Source of the DNA: a virus
DNA: 64,000 nt
Reading direction: 5' to 3' (one strand)
Virus record (IMG/VR): IMGVR_UViG_3300045988_080614
Shown here: piece after piece, positions 16,850 through 55,565 of the stretch
Layout of the letters: every line of letters begins with the position of its first letter
Numbering within the stretch: position 1 is the first letter of the stretch
Notes under the pieces: model-generated
What the model saw: the letters and a program-made list of their open reading frames with translations, nothing else
Database searches by the model: none
Told to the model about the DNA's origin: nothing
Program-made: the position numbers and the translations under genes

Positions 16850-18117
16850 TTACACATTAATATTTTTATTATATACTCTAGTTCCTGCTTCTATTTGTCT
16901 ATCCACACTAAATAGTTTAATAGGTCTTAAATACCCAATTATCCTTGTATATTGAGATATATTTTTACTATGACATTTAGGACATTCTACTATAGGATGC
17001 TTAGTAATATAACCACAATCTTCACATTTACTATTAGGTATATTAAAAGTAAAATATGAAGTACCTTCTTTAATAGCATAATCTATCAATTTTAGATATT
17101 GTTCTTTACTTAAATGCTCTTCTAAATTAATATGGCAAGCAGAACCTCCATCTGTATATTGATAAGTAGAATTTCCATGTAAATACATCTTATCTAATAC
17201 ACTTATATTAGTATCATTCTGTAAGAAGAAATAAGAATTATATAGATTTCTATTAGAAGGAACAAAATATCCATCTTTTTTATCCCAATTATAATTTTTA
17301 CTAGCAAGAGACTCTGCTGGAACTACTTCGCTATTAAATAAGAATGGTCTTTTCTTATCATTAATTGAATGTAAAGCATTTTGCTCCTTTATAGTAGAGA
17401 GAATAAGCTGAAGGAATTCAATATAATCTTTATTATTATTTACTTTAAGACCTAAGAACTCAGCAGCCTCATTAAGACCATTAATTCCTATAGTAGAATA
17501 AAGCTTCTTAATATGAATATAACCAGCATTACAACAAGTAAACATTCCTGCATCTTCCCAATCATATAATATTGTTTTATATGCAATATGATACTTGTAT
17601 ACTCTTTCAAGAATATTAGTAATATATATATTTAAACTATTTCTATTAACCTCTACCTTAATATCTGGTATTCCTTCATTTTTCCAATCTCCAACCCAGT
17701 CTTGAACAATTCTATTAATATTAAGAGTAATTACATTACAAGAGCCTGTCATAATACCTGTCAATCCTGATGTAGGACTAAATGTATTTTTATCTACTTG
17801 ATTTCTTAACCTGCAACATGAAGCTAAACTATCAGCACTATCACTAATATAAGTAAAGAAACTATGTTTTTCAGCATACATTTCTGCACATAAATCTTTA
17901 TATTCTTTATCAATAATATTTTTACCATTATGTACCATTGCAAATGTTTCCACAGGAAAAGCTACTATTGCTTTTGTTCTAAGTTTATTAAACCATTTCA
18001 TAAACAATCTTTGCAAAGTATCTATTGCTTTCCATTCTGGTTTAGTACCATCAGGATAATAGAATTCTCCAAACATTGCTTCAAAATAAGTTTTATCAAA
18101 ATATGAAATATTTGTAA
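16850..18117 (-). CDS. nrdD: anaerobic ribonucleoside-triphosphate reductase NrdD, exon 2
   Basis: The frame extends upstream of the track ORF to ..(F)TNISYFDKTYFEAMFGEF. C-terminal Zn ribbon CEDC...CPKC and glycyl-radical motif TRIIGYLRP. Exon 1 plus exon 2 total 2166 nt (721 aa). Confidence 0.85.
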
Positions 18118-18338
18118 CATTTTGTTCACATAGAGTCGTTAATTCTATGCAGTTCTCTTATGAACTTCTTATAATTTCTTATAAGCTCAGACTATATCAT
18201 TACTTATATAAGTAATCCCCGCTTCCACTCACTTGAGTGTACTCCATAAAGGATAGTCGTTGAACCTTACCAAAATAAATTGGTCTTGGCTGCTGATTAC
18301 CATATCAAATGACTTAGGGTTCCAGCAATTCAAGGATT

Positions 18339-19043
18339 TTATAGTCCACCTACTTTGCCATGTATTTTATGGTGACATATAGAACATACAGTTATTAAAT
18401 TATTAGGATTGTTTAATTCTTTATCTTTAGTAGCAATTTCATACAATTTATCTATGTCTTCTATTGGAGATAATGGATAATTTTGTACTATAATTCTATC
18501 TAATATTACTTTAAAAGGGATTAAATGATGTACTTGTAGATTATCTTTACTTCCACAAATTATACATTTATTTTTATCTCTATTAAGTATTTCCTTTTTT
18601 AAAGAATTATTACTACAATATTCTCGAAGTCTTTGAGATAATGTAGTTATACCACCCTTCCAATTAGGATGATTATTACCTACCATTAATCCTATTTTAC
18701 TTTCAGAATTGTTTCTAATTTTTATTCCTAAATTCTTTAAAACTCTATCAATAACACAAGGGTCACAATTATATCTAAGACCAAGTTCTTTCTTTGAAAG
18801 TCCTTCTTTTAAATATAATCTTTCCATAACTTCTTTATTAGTAAAATCTTTTGGAATTTCTTTAGACTTAAAATTCCATTGTGACTCTACTAAAGTTCTC
18901 CTTGTAATAGAATGTTTCTTTAATCTTAATAAGATTGTTCTATGTGTAGTCTTAAACTGTTCTGCAATCTCAGTTAAAGACTTTCCTTGTAAATACAAGT
19001 CAATAATAATACTATCATTTAAATCTTTTCTATGTGCTGCCAT
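18339..19043 (-). CDS. intron-encoded HNH homing endonuclease
   Basis: CIICGSKDNLQVHHLIPF...NLITVCSICHHKIHG. N-terminal HTH-like GKSLTEIAEQF. Confidence 0.85.
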   Translation of the reverse strand: MAAHRKDLNDSIIIDLYLQGKSLTEIAEQFKTTHRTILLRLKKHSITRRTLVESQWNFKSKEIPKDFTNKEVMERLYLKEGLSKKELGLRYNCDPCVIDRVLKNLGIKIRNNSESKIGLMVGNNHPNWKGGITTLSQRLREYCSNNSLKKEILNRDKNKCIICGSKDNLQVHHLIPFKVILDRIIVQNYPLSPIEDIDKLYEIATKDKELNNPNNLITVCSICHHKIHGKVGGL

Positions 19044-19063
19044 AAATATAATTATTTAGGCTG

Positions 19064-19095
19064 CAAAGATACAAAATTTATTTGAAAGTACCAAA
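19064..19095 (-). promoter_or_regulatory. Bacteroidota-type promoter inside the intron driving the HNH gene
   Basis: Minus strand reads TTTG (19095-19092)-N20-TATCTTTG (19071-19064), 20 nt before the ATG at 19043. Confidence 0.5.
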
Positions 19096-19102
19096 CTTCT
19101 TA

Positions 19103-20000
19103 ATGGACTTTGATATGACCTATTACCAGCAGGTTGATTAATACCCCATACAAATTGACTAAAGGCTTTATAGATTCTATCTCTTACTGTTCTTTGAATT
19201 TTAATATAAGGACTAGTAGCATATAAATCTAGCTTATCATACCATTTATCTCCAAATTCCATAATAGTATAATAATTTAAAGCTATAAAATAAGAACCTA
19301 CTGCTACTGCACCCTTACATTGAGAGGACAATGTAAATATAAGATTAGTTAATTGACCACTAAATGACTCTAAATCATTAGGTGGAGTAGGAGTTACTCC
19401 ATCAATATTACCTACACCTTCTAACATTAAAGGATAGAGACTTACTGCCATACAATAGAATTTAGGTACAGGAGTACTTGCTTCATCATTAGTATAAATA
19501 ATATGATTATTTAAATCTTTTTCATATTGCTTTGCTAATTCAGGAAATAATTCATTAAGTTTATCCTTCATTCTTTGTCTTTGAATAAGCCTATTTTCAT
19601 CTTTATATACTTCTGCTTCAAGAGATGCTACATTTTTAATAGCAGTATTAGCATTAGGGTCTGTATTACTAGAAGTTGCTGCATTTTCTTGGTTATTCTT
19701 ATATTCTTCCATATAATGTAACCTCTTAATTCTAGTTCTAGCTTCCTTATGTTTTTCTCTATAAAGAATATAAGATTTAGCAATATTAGGATAATTACCC
19801 ATAAGATAATATTCTACTGTATCTTGAATACTTTCAGTATTAATATTATCAGTAGTAAAGGCATTAGCAAATTCTTTAAACTCATTCTCATTAAATTTGT
19901 CTTCTTCCTTACAGGACTCAAAAGCCTTCCTAATAGCATTTACTATTTTATTTGAATCCCATTTAACTTTACTACCATCTCTTTTTATTACATATGTCAT
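19103..20000 (-). CDS. nrdD: NrdD, exon 1 (ATP-cone plus N-terminal part)
   Basis: ATP-cone-like VIKRDGSKVKWDSNKIVNAIRKAF. The track ORF reads through into the intron for 15 codons (LRSLVLSNKFCIFAA) before a stop. Confidence 0.85.
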
Positions 20001-24707: not shown

Positions 24708-25550
24708 TTAAATAATAAAACGTTCTACTTCATCCTCTATAACTTCAATAAAGGAATTAGTTTTAAATGTATGTAATTTCTGTAATACACCATAAGCACA
24801 TATAGCCATTTGTGAATCTTCAAGATAACCTTCTTCTGCTAAATTATCATCAAAGGCTTCTGTTACAAGAAATTCTACAAAATAACCAATAAAAGCTCTA
24901 TAATTTGCTAAACCTTTTTGTCCCTCTCCAAATCTTTTAGAAAATACTGTAGGCATTTTTTGAACCCATTCATTGAGGTCTTTTGGAGTAAAAATAGGAC
25001 TACCTATAAGTAATTGTTTAACAATATTATTTAAGTCTGTTTCATTAAATTTATACTTATTATAATCAATAGATTCATCTGTATCTACTCCTGTTTGAAC
25101 AGCAGTATTAGTCTTAGAGAAAGGTATATTTGCTTCCTTATATAAAGGTGTTGCCTTTAAAGTAGGTTCAACAATAAGATTAGTACGAGGCTCTCTACTA
25201 ATATTTGTATTTTTAATCTTATCCTTACTAATTTCTTCAATTCTACTAAATAGGTCTGTATAACCAATATTTACAGTAGGCTTTTCAATATTCAAGAAGA
25301 AATATTCTATTTCATAAGATTCTATAGCATCATATTCATCATTACCTATATTAATAGTTTCTTCACCAAAGAACTCATATTCAAGTACTTCTGTTACATG
25401 AGGAATATGTTTAACTTTTCTTGTAATTGCCGCAGTATATTGACCGGCATTATTAACAATCAAAGATAAGAAATTATTCATATCAGAACCTTCTTCTTGA
25501 AGAGTTCCAAGGTCAGTTCCACTGAAAAACGTTGACATCTGGTCATGTGA
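24708..25550 (-). CDS. JAB/MPN (JAMM) metallopeptidase, exon 2
   Basis: The frame extends upstream of the track ATG to SHDQMSTFFSGTD. Joined to exon 1 this gives HSHDQMSTFFSGTD (HxHx7Sx2D). Confidence 0.8.
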   Translation of the reverse strand, partial: SHDQMSTFFSGTDLGTLQEEGSDMNNFLSLIVNNAGQYTAAITRKVKHIPHVTEVLEYEFFGEETINIGNDEYDAIESYEIEYFFLNIEKPTVNIGYTDLFSRIEEISKDKIKNTNISREPRTNLIVEPTLKATPLYKEANIPFSKTNTAVQTGVDTDESIDYNKYKFNETDLNNIVKQLLIGSPIFTPKDLNEWVQKMPTVFSKRFGEGQKGLANYRAFIGYFVEFLVTEAFDDNLAEEGYLEDSQMAICAYGVLQKLHTFKTNSFIEVIEDEVERFII

Positions 25551-25615
25551 CTTAATGTTATCCTTACAGCTCTTTATCTGTAAGTTCTTGTTTTTATAAT
25601 AAAAATAGTTAATTA

Positions 25616-25647
25616 TTTGCTTATTTAAAATCTAATTTGTACCTTTG
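25616..25647 (+). promoter_or_regulatory. Bacteroidota-type promoter for the LAGLIDADG gene (antisense to the intron)
   Basis: TTTG (25616-25619)-N20-TACCTTTG (25640-25647), 11 nt before the ATG at 25659. Confidence 0.5.
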
Positions 25648-25658
25648 CACATAATAAA

Positions 25659-26549
25659 ATGATTTATATTATGGGAAAATTAAAATTAGAAAATAAAAAA
25701 GATTTAATTTTATCTCTTTATAAAGAAGGTAAAACTCCAATAGAAATATCTAAAATATTAGGTACTTATTTACAGCCTATAACTAATTTATTAAAAGCTT
25801 ATATACCTAATATTAAATTTACTCCTAATAAGGGGAATGTTCATTATTTTCATACTATAGATAGTTATGCAAAAGCTTATATTGTAGGTTTTATAGCTGC
25901 TGATGGAGCTTTAGTAAAACCTAAACATGGTAATGATGCTTTAACTATAACAATTAAATATGAAGATAAGTCTGTTTTAGATTTTATAAAATCTGAAATA
26001 GGTAATGAACATAAAATTCAAGAAATAATTCGACCTTCTAGTTTTGATAAAACTAAAATAATTCATCATGCTAGATACTGTATAACAGATAAAAATATAG
26101 CAGATGATTTACATAAATTAGGTATAGATAATAATAAAAGTTTAACTATGGGAAATATTATAGAAAATATTCCATATAAATATAGAGATGCTTTTATTAT
26201 AGGATATTTTGATGGAGATGGTTCTGTAACTATTAGAAACAGATTATATTCTAATGATAGAAATTTTTTATGTAAGGATTTCTCTCTATATGTACAAATT
26301 AGAGGGACTATTAAATTTCTATCTGGAATATGTAATCATTTAAAAATAACTACTTCTCATATACATCAAATTGATTCTATACCACAATTAAGTTTTGCAA
26401 ATAAAAAAGATACTTATAGATTCTTTCAATGCTATAAAAATCTTCCATTTTATTATAAAAGAAAGTATGATAAATTCTTACAAAGAATAAATCATCCTTC
26501 TTATGACAAATATAAACAAGTTCAGACTATATCATCATCTATAGAATAA
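25659..26549 (+). CDS. double-motif LAGLIDADG homing endonuclease
   Basis: YIVGFIAADGAL and FIIGYFDGDGSV. Encoded on the strand opposite the host gene and intron. Confidence 0.9.
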   Translation: MIYIMGKLKLENKKDLILSLYKEGKTPIEISKILGTYLQPITNLLKAYIPNIKFTPNKGNVHYFHTIDSYAKAYIVGFIAADGALVKPKHGNDALTITIKYEDKSVLDFIKSEIGNEHKIQEIIRPSSFDKTKIIHHARYCITDKNIADDLHKLGIDNNKSLTMGNIIENIPYKYRDAFIIGYFDGDGSVTIRNRLYSNDRNFLCKDFSLYVQIRGTIKFLSGICNHLKITTSHIHQIDSIPQLSFANKKDTYRFFQCYKNLPFYYKRKYDKFLQRINHPSYDKYKQVQTISSSIE

Positions 26550-26716
26550 TCTATAGAGTTGGGCACTCGTGTCACTATTATATTCTGCGTGATTAGCAGT
26601 TTCAAGTGTTAGTCGTTGAACCTTCAAAGAGGTTTTAACCTCTAAGCTTGGCTGCTGATTGTGGCTTGTCAACCAGTTTCCAGCAATTCACCCAATTTTA
26701 TATGCACTCACAGTTA

Positions 26717-27010
26717 ATGCATTAAGCCTTGCTGACATTCTAATAAGTCATGTTCTATCATATAATTACAGATTTCTGCACTCTTATCAAACTCAGTATA
26801 AGTAGCAGAACCATAATCCATAAGACAGAAATCTTTAGCAGTTAATACTAAAGAATTATCTTCAAATCTACCAGTATAATCATAGAATAATACTCCACTA
26901 TATTCATTATTAGGAAATCTAGCACACAAGAATCTAATCTTTTCTTCTAGTTCTGGAGTAATAATTAACTTATATGTATTATCTTGTTTCTTTAATATAT
27001 TTTTGTCCAT
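26717..27010 (-). CDS. JAB/MPN metallopeptidase, exon 1
   Basis: Contains the upstream JAMM Glu context NNEYSGVLFY. Ends ...ECQQGLMH at the splice site (98 codons). Confidence 0.8.
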
Positions 27011-28094
27011 AATTATAATTTATAAATTCTAATATATTCCGTATTGCCACATTAATATATTTTACATTAAGAATATATACAGGTTCAATAGTAGTATCAG
27101 TATCTATAATCCTCATTTTAACAGGTATATTCTTAAATGTAAATAAGACATCAGTACTAGGACTACAAGAACTGTGTCTATTACTATCTTCTTCAGTAAA
27201 ACATCCTTTATAAAAGACTGCTTTTATAAGAATTTTAGCTCTTACTAACTCATTTAAATCTGTAGAAAGTTCTTTATTATTAAATCTTTTATTATAAATT
27301 GCTATAAACTCATTGCTTATTAATCTAATTAAAGAAGCATCATTATCAGCAAAACTATAAGTATTATTTACATATTTAAAAGTAAATACTTTTCTATTTA
27401 TAAGATTACGTATGGCTTCTTTTATAATAAATGAAATTTCTGAAGAGGTTCTACAACTAGTATCTGAAAAAATTATTTCTTTATTACTATTATTTCTACC
27501 AATATATTCCATTCTGTAATAAGGAACTCCTGCTATAGATTCTACTGTAACATATCTAGCTAATTCCACACAGAATAATCTCCATATATTTTCATTATTT
27601 TCATCTCTAAGAATAGTACAAGTTGTTCCAATAGGACCTCCTCCTAAACAAGGTCTCTGAAAATAAGCTTTACCATGACTTAAAGAACCTGAAGGTAAAT
27701 GGGAATGTGTATAATTACTTTCATATAAAACTTTAGTGAAAGTAGTAACAATCATTTCAAATCTTTTAGCTTGTTTTCCTGCATAATCAAGTGGTACTTT
27801 AACATATAAGTCATGAATATCTACACTATTATCTTTTTCATTAGTAATAGTTACATTAGGAAAATGAACTAATATAATATATGAAAATTCACATAATGGA
27901 AGTAAAGGAGAATTTAAAGTATCTTCCAAGTTTTCACCTTCTGCTATTAAAGTTTCTACAGCATCTTTAAAATCTTTATCTACTTGAAAGTCTACTTTAG
28001 TTTCACCAAAGAAACTTTTAAATATTTCATATACTTTAAGAGCTTCTTCTGTAGGAGTATAATATTTATTTCTTATCTGTTCTTTTATATCCAT
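26979..28094 (-). CDS. hypothetical protein (candidate E2/UBC-like partner; unverified)
   Basis: The track start at 28118 is TTG; the ATG at 28094 gives MDIKEQIRNKYY... Beta-rich core followed by THSHLPSGSLSHGKAYFQRPCLGGGP. Overlaps the JAB start by 32 nt. Confidence 0.6.
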   Translation of the reverse strand: MDIKEQIRNKYYTPTEEALKVYEIFKSFFGETKVDFQVDKDFKDAVETLIAEGENLEDTLNSPLLPLCEFSYIILVHFPNVTITNEKDNSVDIHDLYVKVPLDYAGKQAKRFEMIVTTFTKVLYESNYTHSHLPSGSLSHGKAYFQRPCLGGGPIGTTCTILRDENNENIWRLFCVELARYVTVESIAGVPYYRMEYIGRNNSNKEIIFSDTSCRTSSEISFIIKEAIRNLINRKVFTFKYVNNTYSFADNDASLIRLISNEFIAIYNKRFNNKELSTDLNELVRAKILIKAVFYKGCFTEEDSNRHSSCSPSTDVLFTFKNIPVKMRIIDTDTTIEPVYILNVKYINVAIRNILEFINYNYGQKYIKETR

Positions 28095-28158
28095 AAGTAA
28101 TAAAAAAGAAGGGAGCAAATATATTACTATACTTACTCCCTATTAGATTTTTTATAAA

Positions 28159-32388: not shown

Positions 32389-32420
32389 CAAAAGTACTAT
32401 ATTTATTTTACTCTAGCAAA
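32389..32420 (-). promoter_or_regulatory. Bacteroidota-type promoter upstream of the ATPase gene
   Basis: Minus strand reads TTTG (32420-32417)-N20-TACTTTTG (32396-32389). Overlaps the 3' end of the helicase gene. Confidence 0.45.
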
Positions 32421-53291: not shown

Positions 53292-53323
53292 TTTGGTAGT
53301 TTAAAATATTTATATTACCTTTG
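53292..53323 (+). promoter_or_regulatory. Bacteroidota-type promoter (TTTG-N20-TACCTTTG)
   Basis: Near-duplicate of the promoter block at 49451-49490. Lies 17 nt before the ATG at 53341. Confidence 0.55.
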
Positions 53324-53870: not shown

Positions 53871-53942
53871 GGTGGGTTAGACAAGTGGTTAAGTCATAGG
53901 GTTTTCATCCCTACATCAGGAGTTCGAGTCTCCTACCCATTA
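53871..53942 (+). tRNA. tRNA-Glu(TTC)
   Basis: Hand-folded cloverleaf. Anticodon stem taggg/cccta with loop ttTTCat. T arm aggag-ttcgagt-ctcct. The acceptor stem has two G-U pairs. Confidence 0.7.
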
Positions 53943-53947
53943 CTAAT

Positions 53948-54018
53948 TGGAGTATGGTGTAAGGGTAACACGAGAGATTTTGGTCCTCTAATTTTCAGTT
54001 CGAATCTGGGTATTCCAA
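53948..54018 (+). tRNA. tRNA-Gln(TTG)
   Basis: Acceptor tggagta/tattcca, D stem gtgt/acac, loop ttTTGgt, T loop ttcgaat. One A-C mismatch at the base of the anticodon stem. Confidence 0.7.
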
Positions 54019-54025
54019 CTATGAT

Positions 54026-54099
54026 GGCTCTGTAGCTCAACTGAATAGAGCAACAGCCTTCTAAGCTGTGGGTCATAGGTTTGAATCCTATCAGAGTCA
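54026..54099 (+). tRNA. tRNA-Arg(TCT)
   Basis: Acceptor ggctctg/cagagtc, D gctc/gagc, anticodon stem acagc/gctgt with loop ctTCTaa, T arm atagg-tttgaat-cctat. Confidence 0.85.
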
Positions 54100-54148
54100 C
54101 AAGAGGATTTGAGAAATCCAATGAGAATTGTAACTTTTAATATTCTAA

Positions 54149-54178
54149 AACTACTAAATCTGTGAAGACAAGGTAGTT
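54149..54178 (+). other. conserved-loop hairpin, copy 1
   Basis: Stem aactac/gtagtt. 18-nt loop taaatctgtgaagacaag with an inner tct-GTGA-aga mini-helix. Confidence 0.5.
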
Positions 54179-54230
54179 ATATTTAAAAATTTTTATGTGA
54201 GTAAAAAATGTGGCAAACATACAGCGATTA

Positions 54231-54262
54231 TAAGCAGTAAATCTGTGAAGACTAGCTGCTTA
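54231..54262 (+). other. conserved-loop hairpin, copy 2
   Basis: Stem taagcag/ctgctta. 18-nt loop taaatctgtgaagactag. Ends 4 nt before tRNA-Ala. Confidence 0.5.
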
Positions 54263-54266
54263 ATTT

Positions 54267-54339
54267 GGGGATAGTGGTGTAATTGGTAACATATTTCCTT
54301 TGCAAGGAAATGTTTAGAGTTCGAGTCTCTCTGTCTCCA
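54267..54339 (+). tRNA. tRNA-Ala(TGC)
   Basis: G3-U70 wobble present in the acceptor ggggata/tgtctcc. Anticodon stem tttcc/ggaaa with loop ttTGCaa. Confidence 0.8.
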
Positions 54340-54443
54340 CATGAAAAGTATTGTAGATGCATATATGAATACAACGTAACTCCTAGGTTTTAGTTTATCT
54401 ATGTAAGTTTAGTCCTAGTGGATGTCGTAGAATCCTTAGTAAC

Positions 54444-54468
54444 AAGGGAGGCTAGAGTTATCTCCCTT
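54444..54468 (+). other. leader hairpin before tRNA-Met
   Basis: 7-bp stem aagggag/ctccctt. Ends 4 nt before the tRNA. Confidence 0.4.
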
Positions 54469-54472
54469 ACAT

Positions 54473-54544
54473 CGTGGGTTGTAGCAGTGATAGCTTACTT
54501 GGCTCATAACCAAGTGGTCGTTGGTTTGAATCCAACACCCACAA
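54473..54544 (+). tRNA. tRNA-Met(CAT); function (initiator, elongator or Ile2) undetermined
   Basis: Anticodon stem cttgg/ccaag with loop ctCATaa. T arm gttgg-tttgaat-ccaac. C1-A72 mismatch. Short atypical D arm. Confidence 0.7.
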
Positions 54545-54586
54545 CTATTAACTTTTAGATTTAATATATTAAACTAAGGTTTTCAA

Positions 54587-54612
54587 CTCTACTTTCCCTT
54601 AATAAAGTAGAG
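54587..54612 (+). other. leader hairpin before tRNA-Asn
   Basis: 9-bp stem ctctacttt/aaagtagag, 9 nt before the tRNA. Confidence 0.4.
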
Positions 54613-54621
54613 TGCTATTAT

Positions 54622-54693
54622 TGGGATATAGCTCAAAGGCAGAGCATTTGACTGTTAATCAAAAGGTTGAGGTATCGTAATCCTCTATCCCAG
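54622..54693 (+). tRNA. tRNA-Asn(GTT)
   Basis: Perfect acceptor tgggata/tatccca, D gctc/gagc, loop ctGTTaa. Non-canonical T arm gaggt-atcgtaa-tcctc. Confidence 0.65.
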
Positions 54694-54701
54694 CTATAAA
54701 T

Positions 54702-54775
54702 AGGAGTATAGTTCAGTCGGTTAGAGCATTTGGCTTATATCCAAATTGTCGGGGGTTCAAGTCCCTCTGCTCCTA
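54702..54775 (+). tRNA. tRNA-Ile(TAT)
   Basis: Acceptor aggagta/tgctcct, D gttc/gagc, anticodon stem tttgg/ccaaa with loop ctTATat, T arm ggggg-ttcaagt-ccctc. Confidence 0.8.
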
Positions 54776-54782
54776 CTATTTA

Positions 54783-54855
54783 CTCTCTTTAGCTCAGTTG
54801 GTAGAGTACGAAACTTTTAATTTTGGGGTCATGGGTTCAAGTCCCATAGGAGAGA
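54783..54855 (+). tRNA. tRNA-Lys(TTT)
   Basis: Acceptor ctctctt/aggagag, D gctc/gagt, loop ctTTTaa, T arm atggg-ttcaagt-cccat. Confidence 0.8.
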
Positions 54856-54857
54856 CT

Positions 54858-55109
54858 ATGAATTATTTATTAAAACTTATACAGAATAATACAGGAGTAA
54901 GTTCTAAGAATTTCTTTCTAGTATCTGTAACTATTGTAGGTATATTATTACTTATAGTACCTATAATAGTATTATTAGTAGAAGTATTTAATGAACATAC
55001 AATACATACAGATTTAAGTGGTATGGCACAATATATTACAGCAGTAGCGGCTATATTTACATCTGTAGGTATTACTAAAGCATGGTCAGAAAAATATGAA
55101 AAGAAATAA
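54858..55109 (+). CDS. small two-helix membrane protein embedded in the tRNA array (holin-like topology; function unproven)
   Basis: ATG at 54858, 2 nt after tRNA-Lys: MNYLLKLIQ...FFLVSVTIVGILLLIVPIIVLLV...YITAVAAIFTSVGITKAW. The track's TTG start at 54798 lies inside the tRNA. Confidence 0.45.
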   Translation: MNYLLKLIQNNTGVSSKNFFLVSVTIVGILLLIVPIIVLLVEVFNEHTIHTDLSGMAQYITAVAAIFTSVGITKAWSEKYEKK

Positions 55110-55181
55110 GCTTCTCTATATCAATGATAGATTGTCACCCTTGTAAGGTGAAGGTTATAGGTTTGAGTCCTATGAGAAGCT
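55110..55181 (+). tRNA. tRNA-Thr(TGT)
   Basis: Perfect acceptor gcttctc/gagaagc, anticodon stem tcacc/ggtga with loop ctTGTaa, T arm atagg-tttgagt-cctat. Irregular D arm. Confidence 0.65.
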
Positions 55182-55208
55182 CAATATAAACTTTAAATTT
55201 GTATTATT

Positions 55209-55319
55209 ATGAAAGTTATTACATTTGTAAAAAACATGATTAAAGCTTATTTTAAAGCTTATGCAGATGCTATGGAACCATTCTATAAACATGGTATTTC
55301 TCCTATGTGTCCTGCATAA
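55209..55319 (+). CDS. very small ORF (36 aa), doubtful
   Basis: Hand-translated MKVITFVKNMIKAYFKAYADAMEPFYKHGISPMCPA. Followed by two hairpins. Confidence 0.25.
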   Translation: MKVITFVKNMIKAYFKAYADAMEPFYKHGISPMCPA

Positions 55320-55370
55320 TTAATTGATGTTTAAAGTGTTATGAGCAATATGGCTCATACACTATGTTTG

Positions 55371-55393
55371 AGGAGGGTAATACCTCCTTTTTT
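55371..55393 (+). terminator. intrinsic terminator
   Basis: aggagg-gtaata-cctcct hairpin followed by a T-run. Confidence 0.55.
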
Positions 55394-55430
55394 AATGACT
55401 GTTAATTAAGTGTTAAAGTATGTAATTTCC

Positions 55431-55461
55431 TTGTATAATATAAATATTTGTATTATCTTTG
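55431..55461 (+). promoter_or_regulatory. Bacteroidota-type promoter (cTTG-N20-TATCTTTG) before tRNA-Leu
   Basis: The -7 box at 55454-55461 lies 20 nt before the tRNA 5' end. Confidence 0.5.
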
Positions 55462-55481
55462 CAGCAGTTAAATAAAACAAT

Positions 55482-55565
55482 GCTCCTATGGTGGAATTGG
55501 TAGACACAAGGGACTTAAAATCCCTCAGCCTTTAGGCTATGCAAGTTCAAATCTTGTTAGGAGTA
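55482..55565 (+). tRNA. tRNA-Leu(TAA), long variable arm
   Basis: Anticodon stem aggga/tccct with loop ctTAAaa. Variable-arm hairpin agcc-ttta-ggct. T arm gcaag-ttcaaat-cttgt. Confidence 0.85.

Follow-up and report, generated by a model that had tools for sequence, protein, structure and literature searches.

A group I intron with an opposite-strand LAGLIDADG endonuclease gene at the HxH codons of a JAB/JAMM metalloprotease gene in a crAss-like phage

Phage group I introns of the IA type carrying homing-endonuclease genes are well known, among them the T4 introns in td (with I-TevI) and nrdD (sunY; with I-TevII) and those of Bacillus phage SPO1 and Staphylococcus phage Twort. Here we analyze a 64,000-nucleotide (nt) stretch of viral DNA, IMG/VR record IMGVR_UViG_3300045988_080614 (the window, meaning this whole stretch), in which a 1166-nt group I intron at 25551-26716 on the minus strand splits the gene of a JAB/MPN+ metalloprotease within the codons of its catalytic HxH motif. 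Phage group I introns with homing endonucleases have been reviewed (PMC3984707), and the window intron resembles those of T4, SPO1 and Twort in its P7.1/P7.2-containing core, in its insertion into the most conserved, active-site-coding DNA of a phage enzyme gene, in the stop codon at its start, in an endonuclease open reading frame (ORF) that lies in a peripheral loop, partly overlaps the core and has its own (here candidate) promoter, and in its presence/absence polymorphism between close relatives. It differs from them in that the endonuclease is encoded on the opposite strand and belongs to the LAGLIDADG family instead of GIY-YIG or HNH, in that P2 is absent, and in its JAB/MPN+ host gene, for which we found no prior report as an intron host.

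From crAss-like phages, group I introns that contain endonuclease domains, LAGLIDADG among them, have already been described (Yutin et al. 2021, PMC7886860). The host genes named there are MCP, PolB, primase, ATP_43b and RNAP subunits (Delta and Zeta groups), and these introns share with the window intron the virus order, the endonuclease domains and the interruption of core genes at conserved motifs. MPN and ThiF genes appear there only as genome-map entries, and the orientation of endonuclease genes is not discussed in the text searched. We found no mention of an intron in an MPN/JAB gene there or elsewhere in the literature.

Opposite-strand endonuclease genes are known from nuclear ribosomal DNA (rDNA) group I introns, i.e. 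Didymium I-DirII and the L2066 introns (PMC3073962, PMC9548176); our literature search for such genes in phage or bacterial introns returned only these eukaryotic rDNA cases, and the words 'antisense', 'opposite' and 'orientation' are absent from the main review of bacterial group I introns. An embedded opposite-strand endonuclease gene with its own promoter, in the window a candidate, is common to the rDNA and the window introns. The rDNA introns are eukaryotic and have His-Cys box enzymes, Pol II promoters, spliceosomal introns and polyadenylation, whereas the window intron resides in a phage protein-coding gene and combines a LAGLIDADG enzyme with a bacterial-type candidate promoter. The two arrangements are analogous and unrelated. 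The locus adds a new host gene and insertion site to a well-known class of element, with a gene arrangement that is unusual but recurrent.

The interrupted JAB gene and the intron boundaries

The gene and its intron are composed as follows.

26717..27010, minus strand: exon 1 of the JAB/MPN+ metalloprotease gene (crAss001 gp77 homologue), 98 codons, ending ..GLMH
25551..26716, minus strand: group I intron, 1166 nt, with the in-frame stop UAA first and the G at 25551 last
24708..25550, minus strand: exon 2 of the JAB gene, from SHDQMSTFFSGTD.. to the stop codon

The first-pass annotation of this DNA had taken the minus-strand ORFs 26714-27010 and 24708-25538 for halves of one gene, and the gap-free alignment of the joined product bears this out. 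The exon 1 ORF (26714..27010) encodes 98 amino acids (aa) with the C-terminus ..ECQQGLMH followed by TAA, the last exon bases being ATGCAT, at 26717, with U as the final base in the RNA. The exon 2 ORF (24708..25538) has the N-terminus MSTFFSGTD and starts with an ATG 12 nt inside exon 2; continuing in frame upstream of this ATG at 25538 gives SHDQ, beginning at 25550 with the bases TCACATGAC (SHD..). The intervening intron, read from 26716 to 25551, starts with UAACUG and ends with ..CAUUAAG. Joining the exons gives a 378-aa product, ..GLMH/SHDQMSTFFSGTD (a slash marks the junction), in which HxHx7Sx2D is formed in phase 0, so that the intron follows the codon of the first metal-binding His and precedes the Ser-His codons of the HxH motif. 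The sequence as read thereby agrees with the first-pass annotation on the exon end GLMH with its U, on the terminal G of the 1166-nt interval and on the restoration of HSHx7Sx2D.

Intron-less alleles show the same junction. Sequence L004 from IMG/VR (handles with L denote sequences used for comparison) is identical to exon 1 plus exon 2 at 1129 of 1137 nt and runs uninterrupted across the junction (..TTAATGCAT/TCACATGACC..; also written ..GGTTTAATGCAT/TCACATGACCAG..). The intron-less sequences L004 to L008, L012 and L014, with identities of 95-99%, run on without a break exactly where the junction is predicted, and over 8 kb around the gene the identity to intron-less phages is 98.5-98.9% at the nucleotide level with one single clean gap of intron length. 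The motif is intact at the identical junction in these homologues, a comparison that the first-pass annotation had put forward as a check. A public protein search returned 2779 relatives, of which the best 120 are all contiguous proteins of 378 aa, 97-99% identical to the spliced product. Two further IMG/VR contigs carry this 1166-nt insertion at 99-100% identity; a megablast of the locus against deposited phage genomes gave no near-identical match. As intron and exon 2 both begin with T, the comparison of DNA alone leaves an ambiguity of 1 nt, and of the possible placements only the one chosen in the first-pass annotation yields a terminal G.

Several other readings of the interval were considered and rejected. 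The 3' end of the Rfam match, 26507, as an alternative 3' splice site does not restore the frame and disagrees with the intron-less alleles. Stop-codon reassignment occurs in crAss-like phages; here the stop is UAA and the interval is rich in stops in all minus-strand frames. An intein is ruled out by the UAA as first intron codon, by the many later stops and by the location of the endonuclease ORF on the other strand. A group II intron is not supported either: within 25300-27000 no such Rfam match was obtained at E-values up to 10, and the only ORF with a Pfam match inside the interval is the LAGLIDADG ORF, not one for a reverse transcriptase.

The identification of the interrupted motif as JAMM, also proposed in the first-pass annotation, is supported by several lines of evidence. 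E36, H98, S99, H100, S108 and D111 are invariant across eight diverse relatives and make up the JAMM signature E..HxHx7SxxD, which in the alignment matches JAMM1 (5lda) residue for residue. Pfam Prok-JAB matches the window protein weakly (16.5-18.8 bits, cut-off 25) and is found in 8/8 diverse family members with a best E-value of 9e-6. A family profile searched against the Protein Data Bank (PDB) matched JAMM/MPN+ proteases in 30 of 30 cases (CSN5, RPN11, JAMM1, AMSH/STAMBP), each match being weak (E 0.011-0.55). For the intron-less protein P0001, AlphaFold run on the single sequence gave an unusable model (mean pLDDT 35), and the listed homologues are too alike for a useful alignment. The spliced protein aligns gap-free with three intron-less homologues (crAss001 gp77, cr128_1 and bajarodcaudo) at GL[MI]H/SH[DN].M.TFFSGTD. 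That the JAB gene is functional and under selection, as the first-pass annotation suggested, is plausible judged from the intact catalytic residues and from the codon differences to L004, which with 6 synonymous against 1 non-synonymous are consistent with purifying selection in what is a small sample.

The joined protein and the gene order, compared with Crassvirales, identify the source of the window, a gut phage, as crAss-like. Over its full length the protein is 32-38% identical to crAss001 gp77, recorded as 'metalloprotease domain containing protein', and to homologues in cr128_1, DAC15/17 and other Crassvirales. Window and crAss-like relatives have in common the gene order primase, two unnamed genes, gp78, JAB, ThiF, gp75, UDG. 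The gp78-like protein encoded directly upstream of the JAB gene (26979-28118, minus strand) belongs to a family sharing an invariant Y-x-H-S-H followed by C..G.GPI, and has no Pfam or NCBIfam match.

Ribozyme core and covarying RNA structure

The first-pass annotation had called the interval a group I intron with the conserved elements P, Q, R and S on the minus strand and had named a covariance-model search as a way to examine this. The four elements are present between 26690 and 26522, and in a short-range search Rfam RF00028 matches 26726..26507 (minus strand) over the whole model (positions 1-253) with 69.8 bits against a gathering score of 50 and an E-value of 3.1e-17. Whole-window scans of the 64 kb with Rfam, in gathering as well as in E-value mode, missed both group I introns of the window, the present one and the one at 18168-18395 described below, and sub-ranges of about 2 kb reveal them. 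The misses occur because the speed filters hide AT-rich phage introns; the absence of a covariance-model hit in a whole-window scan would therefore be a false refutation. The components of the RNA are listed below.

26690-26676, minus strand: conserved group I element P
26660-26650, minus strand: conserved group I element Q
26621-26610, minus strand: conserved group I element R
26533-26522, minus strand: conserved group I element S
26507..26726, minus strand: ribozyme core with P1 and P3-P9, without P2 (Rfam RF00028)
26722-26717 with 26707-26702, minus strand: P1, exon AUGCAU with guide GUGCAU, U.G at the 5' splice site
26712-26708 with 25550-25546, minus strand: P10 (5 bp), guide UGUGA with exon 2 UCACA, the guide adjoining the P1 guide on its 5' side
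26695-26689 with 26565-26559, minus strand: core helix P3
26685-26680 with 26658-26653, minus strand: core helix P4
26675-26671 with 26666-26662, minus strand: core helix P5
26651-26621, minus strand: core helix P6/P6a
26614-26610 with 26529-26525, minus strand: core helix P7
26608-26573, minus strand: P7.1/P7.2, two helices with two co-varying pairs each
26557-26538, minus strand: core helix P8
26459..26502, minus strand: long P9-region hairpin, kept in the ORF-less L045, its antisense being part of the endonuclease C-terminal tail
25563..25584, minus strand: terminal 7-bp hairpin CUUACAG-AUAAAGAG-CUGUAAG with conserved loop, 12 nt upstream of the 3' splice site

Related introns were located by means of the endonuclease protein and DNA patterns, and ten of them were aligned without the endonuclease region and examined for covariation under a hand-drawn structure with P7 and P10 as pseudoknots. 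Standard pairs occupy 94.4% of the cells, compared to 35-46% after shifting the partners by 1-3 columns, and 36 of 82 pairs change on both sides, a number that none of 500 shuffles equaled (shuffle mean 16.1). Compensatory changes are found in P1, P10, P3, P5, P6a, P7.1, P7.2, P8, the P9 hairpin and the terminal hairpin, in the latter in six of its seven pairs, while P4, P6 and P7 are invariant over the ten introns. The U.G pair of P1 is invariant in ten relatives and two other P1 pairs co-vary: exon AUGCAU faces guide GUGCAU in the window, AUCCAU faces GUGGAU in L017, L018, L021 and L045, and GUGCAU faces GUGCAC in L019 and L147. These P1 changes are the most telling part of the covariation because one strand of the helix is protein-coding exon. 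UAA starts every crAss-like member of the alignment. The Rfam match, the U.G pair of P1, P10, the terminal G, the intron-less alleles and the covariation all support the assignment as a group I intron.

The opposite-strand endonuclease gene and the intron family

The only long ORF inside the intron lies on the plus strand, i.e. antisense to the intron and not, as the first-pass annotation assumed, in the manner of a conventional intron-encoded endonuclease.

25659..26549, plus strand: LAGLIDADG homing-endonuclease ORF, antisense to the intron, 296 aa from the ATG at 25659
25616..25647, plus strand: candidate Bacteroidetes-type promoter, TTTG-N20-TACCTTTG, ending 11 nt before the ATG at 25659

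The conserved start is the ATG at 25671 (292 aa), since in L017 the first ATG is directly followed by a stop, and public gene calls use the same start. The protein matches Pfam PF14528 (LAGLIDADG_3) with 33.9 bits (cut-off 22.5) and PF00961 with 21.1 bits, slightly under the cut-off of 23.1. By inspection of the translation it has two LAGLIDADG motifs, IVGFIAADG and IIGYFDGDG, both with their acidic residues, and a helix-turn-helix-like segment at the N-terminus. A PDB sequence search returned no LAGLIDADG relatives and NCBIfam gave no match. The stop at 26549 falls into the P8 loop and the last ~30 codons (from about 26459) are the complement of the core, the 3' end of the gene being antisense to the 3' strand of P8, J8/7, the 3' strand of P7 and the P9 hairpin; by this overlap the tail of the endonuclease, ..KQVQTISSSIE, is dictated by the ribozyme sequence. 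All close homologues found (56-100% identity) are likewise antisense to their own ribozyme and overlap its 3' side.

In an exact-protein look-up the identical 292-aa endonuclease was found in 43 blocks of public assemblies, and the 296-aa form gave no match. In the eight listed places, from independent samples, the gene stands between genes of 98 aa and 276 aa with ThiF adjoining.

The candidate promoter sits within the 3' part of the intron and, by its match to the Bacteroidetes consensus, would drive transcription of the endonuclease gene. The pattern TTTG-N17-23-TAnnTTTG occurs nine times in the 64-kb window against 3.6 expected, with 0 of 100 shuffles reaching nine, and the TAnnTTTG box is kept in L017, L018, L019 and L020 despite diverged surroundings. 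Copies of the pattern include 19064-19095 (minus), 25616-25647 (plus), 32389-32420 (minus) and 53292-53323 (plus), with five more in addition; between the copy at 32389-32420 and the promoter region of the JAB intron the identity amounts to 76% over 55 nt. The HNH ORF of the second intron is preceded by a copy whose end is 21 nt upstream of it, and another copy lies upstream of an array of ten tRNA genes (53871-55565, plus strand).

The second intron of the window has its core at 18168-18395 (minus strand; RF00028 92.4 bits, E 6e-24), with ORFs at 19056-20000, 18339-19043 and 16850-18076 around it, all on the minus strand. It splits an apparent NrdD-like (anaerobic ribonucleotide reductase) gene, an assignment made by reading the translation only, and carries on its sense strand, between exon 1 and ribozyme core, an ORF for an HNH endonuclease with an N-terminal helix-turn-helix. 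The ~40 N-terminal residues of the LAGLIDADG protein (25671-25800, plus) and of the HNH protein (18920-19043, minus) are 35% identical over 40 positions (pairwise E 0.003), and both look like helix-turn-helix DNA-binding modules.

Diverged JAB genes contain introns of the same family at the same H/SH site, i.e. in L017 (1159 nt), L018 (1039 nt), L019/L022 (1959 nt), L145 (1319 nt) and L147, whose fetched sequence stops inside the intron. Not all same-site copies contain an endonuclease gene, which was either lost or never there: L021 (405 nt) has lost it by deletion and L045/L068 (300 nt) are without ORF. In L045 the P9 and terminal hairpins are adjacent, which points to insertion of a self-contained endonuclease cassette between the two. 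The 1959-nt introns (L019 2651-4609, L022 1869-3827) have two endonuclease-like ORFs, namely a 210-aa sense-strand ORF with the LAGLIDADG-like motif LIGLVLGDG (by inspection), which replaces P7.1/P7.2, and an opposite-strand LAGLIDADG ORF in the P9 region. A further member (L020, 2862-3823) resides in the upstream gp78-like gene at ..DYMH/SHVSG.. and encodes an endonuclease 56% identical to that of the window. Its spliced product aligns gap-free with gp78 homologues and contains the invariant Y-x-H-S-H. The P1 guide of this copy fits AUGCAU, and its P10 guide, AGACA instead of UGUGA, fits the exon 2 sequence AGUCA. The JAB and gp78 target sites have ..ATGCAT/nnnCAT.. in common.

A cousin intron splits the JAB gene near HxH in the Flavobacterium psychrophilum phages Fpv1, Fpv2, Fpv20 and FpV21 and the FPSV series. 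In Fpv1 (NC_031914.1), positions 63500-70500 of which we numbered as L156, the genes are the following.

L156 3809-4162: gp56, exon 1 of the JAB gene
L156 2897-3646, opposite strand: gp55 'endonuclease', LAGLIDADG, 39% protein identity to that of the window
L156 1870-2814: gp54, exon 2 of the JAB gene, ThiF adjoining

The Fpv1-type phages have in common with the window the ThiF neighbor, the split JAB gene, a related core (74% identical over 183 nt in Fpv1) and an antisense LAGLIDADG gene overlapping this core. In contrast to the window, their intron has a P2 hairpin, a splice site 6 nt upstream of the crAss-like one, its own P1 and P10 (in Fpv1 GGUCAU with GUGACC and AUACAU with GUGUAU) and an RF00028 score under the gathering score (43.4 bits). 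The derived splice site is ..VGH/IHSHNTM.., the intron has 1021 nt and ends with G, and the predicted spliced junction reads ..GGTCAT/ATACATTCACAC... The part of the Fpv1 GenBank record that we examined has no intron annotation.

Of the 101 distinct related cores in our IMG/VR sample, four have a bona fide opposite-strand endonuclease gene inside the intron (coordinates are in intron sense).

L043, 769-1546: opposite-strand GIY-YIG with NUMOD1, between R and S
L060, 2165-3026: opposite-strand LAGLIDADG, between R and S
L105, 421-1252: opposite-strand LAGLIDADG, between R and S
L130: the same intron and contig as L011/L015, 100% identical to that of the window

As L043, L060 and L105 are found on unrelated phage contigs, the opposite-strand arrangement arose more than once. 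A sister group of cores (L146, L148, L151 and L155) has a large P5 extension, lies in a different gene with the exon 1 end ..CATCCAT and is followed by a long sense-strand ORF.

A model for splicing and homing and its alternatives

The data very probably describe a mobile self-splicing IA-type group I intron in the JAB/JAMM gene of a crAss-like phage, located between the His and Ser codons of HxH. According to this model the minus-strand pre-mRNA would fold so that exon AUGCAU pairs with guide GUGCAU, placing U.G at the splice site, and guanosine would attack 3' of the P1 U. Guide UGUGA would then pair with UCACA of exon 2 to form P10 while the terminal G at 25551 docks, and ligation of the exons would yield the 378-aa protein, its E..HSHx7SxxD site intact. 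The UAA as first intron codon would keep ribosomes out of the ribozyme. Mobility would be conferred by the single-chain LAGLIDADG enzyme with its two motifs, encoded on the opposite strand between the P9 and the terminal hairpins, and a Bacteroidetes-type promoter of its own presumably drives its gene. When intron-carrying and intron-less phages infect together, the enzyme would cut the intron-less allele near ..TTAATGCAT/TCACATGACC.., the predicted target within intron-less sequence being ..CAAGGTTTAATGCATTCACATGACCAGATG.., and repair would copy the intron in.

Some features weigh against this model. We infer splicing, cleavage and the cleavage target from sequence. The catalytic core and the 3' splice site are some 950 nt apart, a distance that could delay selection of the 3' site, and the mRNA of the endonuclease has full complementarity to the intron RNA, covering also the 3' strand of P7, J8/7 and part of P8, which could disturb folding. 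The promoter is a consensus match conserved in five sequences. The presence/absence polymorphism fits homing gain and precise loss alike, as far as the alleles can tell. The presence of P7.1/P7.2 places the intron in the IA group, and the absence of P2 precludes a clean assignment to a finer subgroup.

It is quite unlikely that the ribozyme splices within an immobile element, the LAGLIDADG protein being an inactive nuclease or acting as maturase only and the polymorphism being due to precise loss or recombination. The numbers are in line with such a view, as intron-less alleles far outnumber carriers in public data, and so is the retention of the intron without endonuclease gene in L021 and L045, which shows that the intron can be kept without this gene. 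However, an acidic residue is kept in both LAGLIDADG motifs (IAADG and FDGDG), the ORF is intact in lineages just 56-73% identical to each other as well as in public assemblies from independent samples, and members of the family are found in a second gene (L020) and, in the Flavobacterium phages, at a site 6 nt away, which requires mobility at some time.

Some T4-like phage genes are split with a free-standing endonuclease gene between the halves, and the JAB gene might likewise be permanently split and unspliced, the 98-aa and 276-aa halves being made separately and assembling or being inactive. The three separate genes in public gene calls and in the Fpv1 GenBank record (gp56, gp55, gp54) fit this, as does the ATG (MSTFF..) 12 nt inside exon 2. 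We nevertheless regard it as highly improbable, given a full group I core in sense orientation with P1 and P10 pairing to and co-varying with the exact exon ends, a phase-0 junction that restores the motif gap-free, and the separation of the two metal-binding HxH histidines that would result. An assembly artefact or chimera, for which one might cite the lack of a close match to the window among deposited phage genomes, is practically negligible as an explanation: the same 1166 nt recur 99-100% identical in two other IMG/VR contigs, eight listed contigs from independent samples carry the identical endonuclease in the same context, and diverged versions occupy the same site in other phages. This recurrence already refutes an artefact.

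Beyond the model of a mobile self-splicing intron, we raise as an unlikely but related suggestion that the opposite-strand arrangement is a regulatory device and, in connection with this, that the intron moves between genes by P1-guided reverse splicing. Plus-strand endonuclease transcripts are perfectly complementary to the 950 nt at the 3' end of the intron, so that endonuclease expression may block folding of the ribozyme or trigger double-strand RNA cleavage and thereby lower the amount of JAB protease, and transcription of the host gene may conversely reduce endonuclease production. The family may spread to short H/SH-coding sequences (..ATGCAT/nnnCAT..) by reverse splicing directed by the 6-nt P1 and not by the endonuclease, as suggested by P1 and P10 of the gp78-like copy, which fit the new site.

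As a summary, recognizing the intron corrects gene annotation: in the intron-carrying crAss-like contigs examined and in deposited Flavobacterium phage genomes the JAB gene is called as two 'hypothetical' genes and an 'endonuclease', and default covariance-model scans of whole contigs can overlook such introns. Opposite-strand endonuclease genes with their own candidate promoters recur in phage group I introns, for which we found no discussion in phages, and the cultured Flavobacterium phages allow direct tests of splicing, promoter use and endonuclease activity. The well-sampled natural series of ORF-less, endonuclease-carrying, two-endonuclease, gene-deleted, ectopic-site and shifted-site forms is suited to studying the homing cycle. 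For the biology of these phages, recognition of the intron restores to view a conserved 378-aa enzyme within the conserved block gp78 / JAB / ThiF (E1-like) / gp75, and its position singles out the HxH codons as the gene's most constrained DNA and the Y-x-H-S-H of the neighboring gene as another constrained site.

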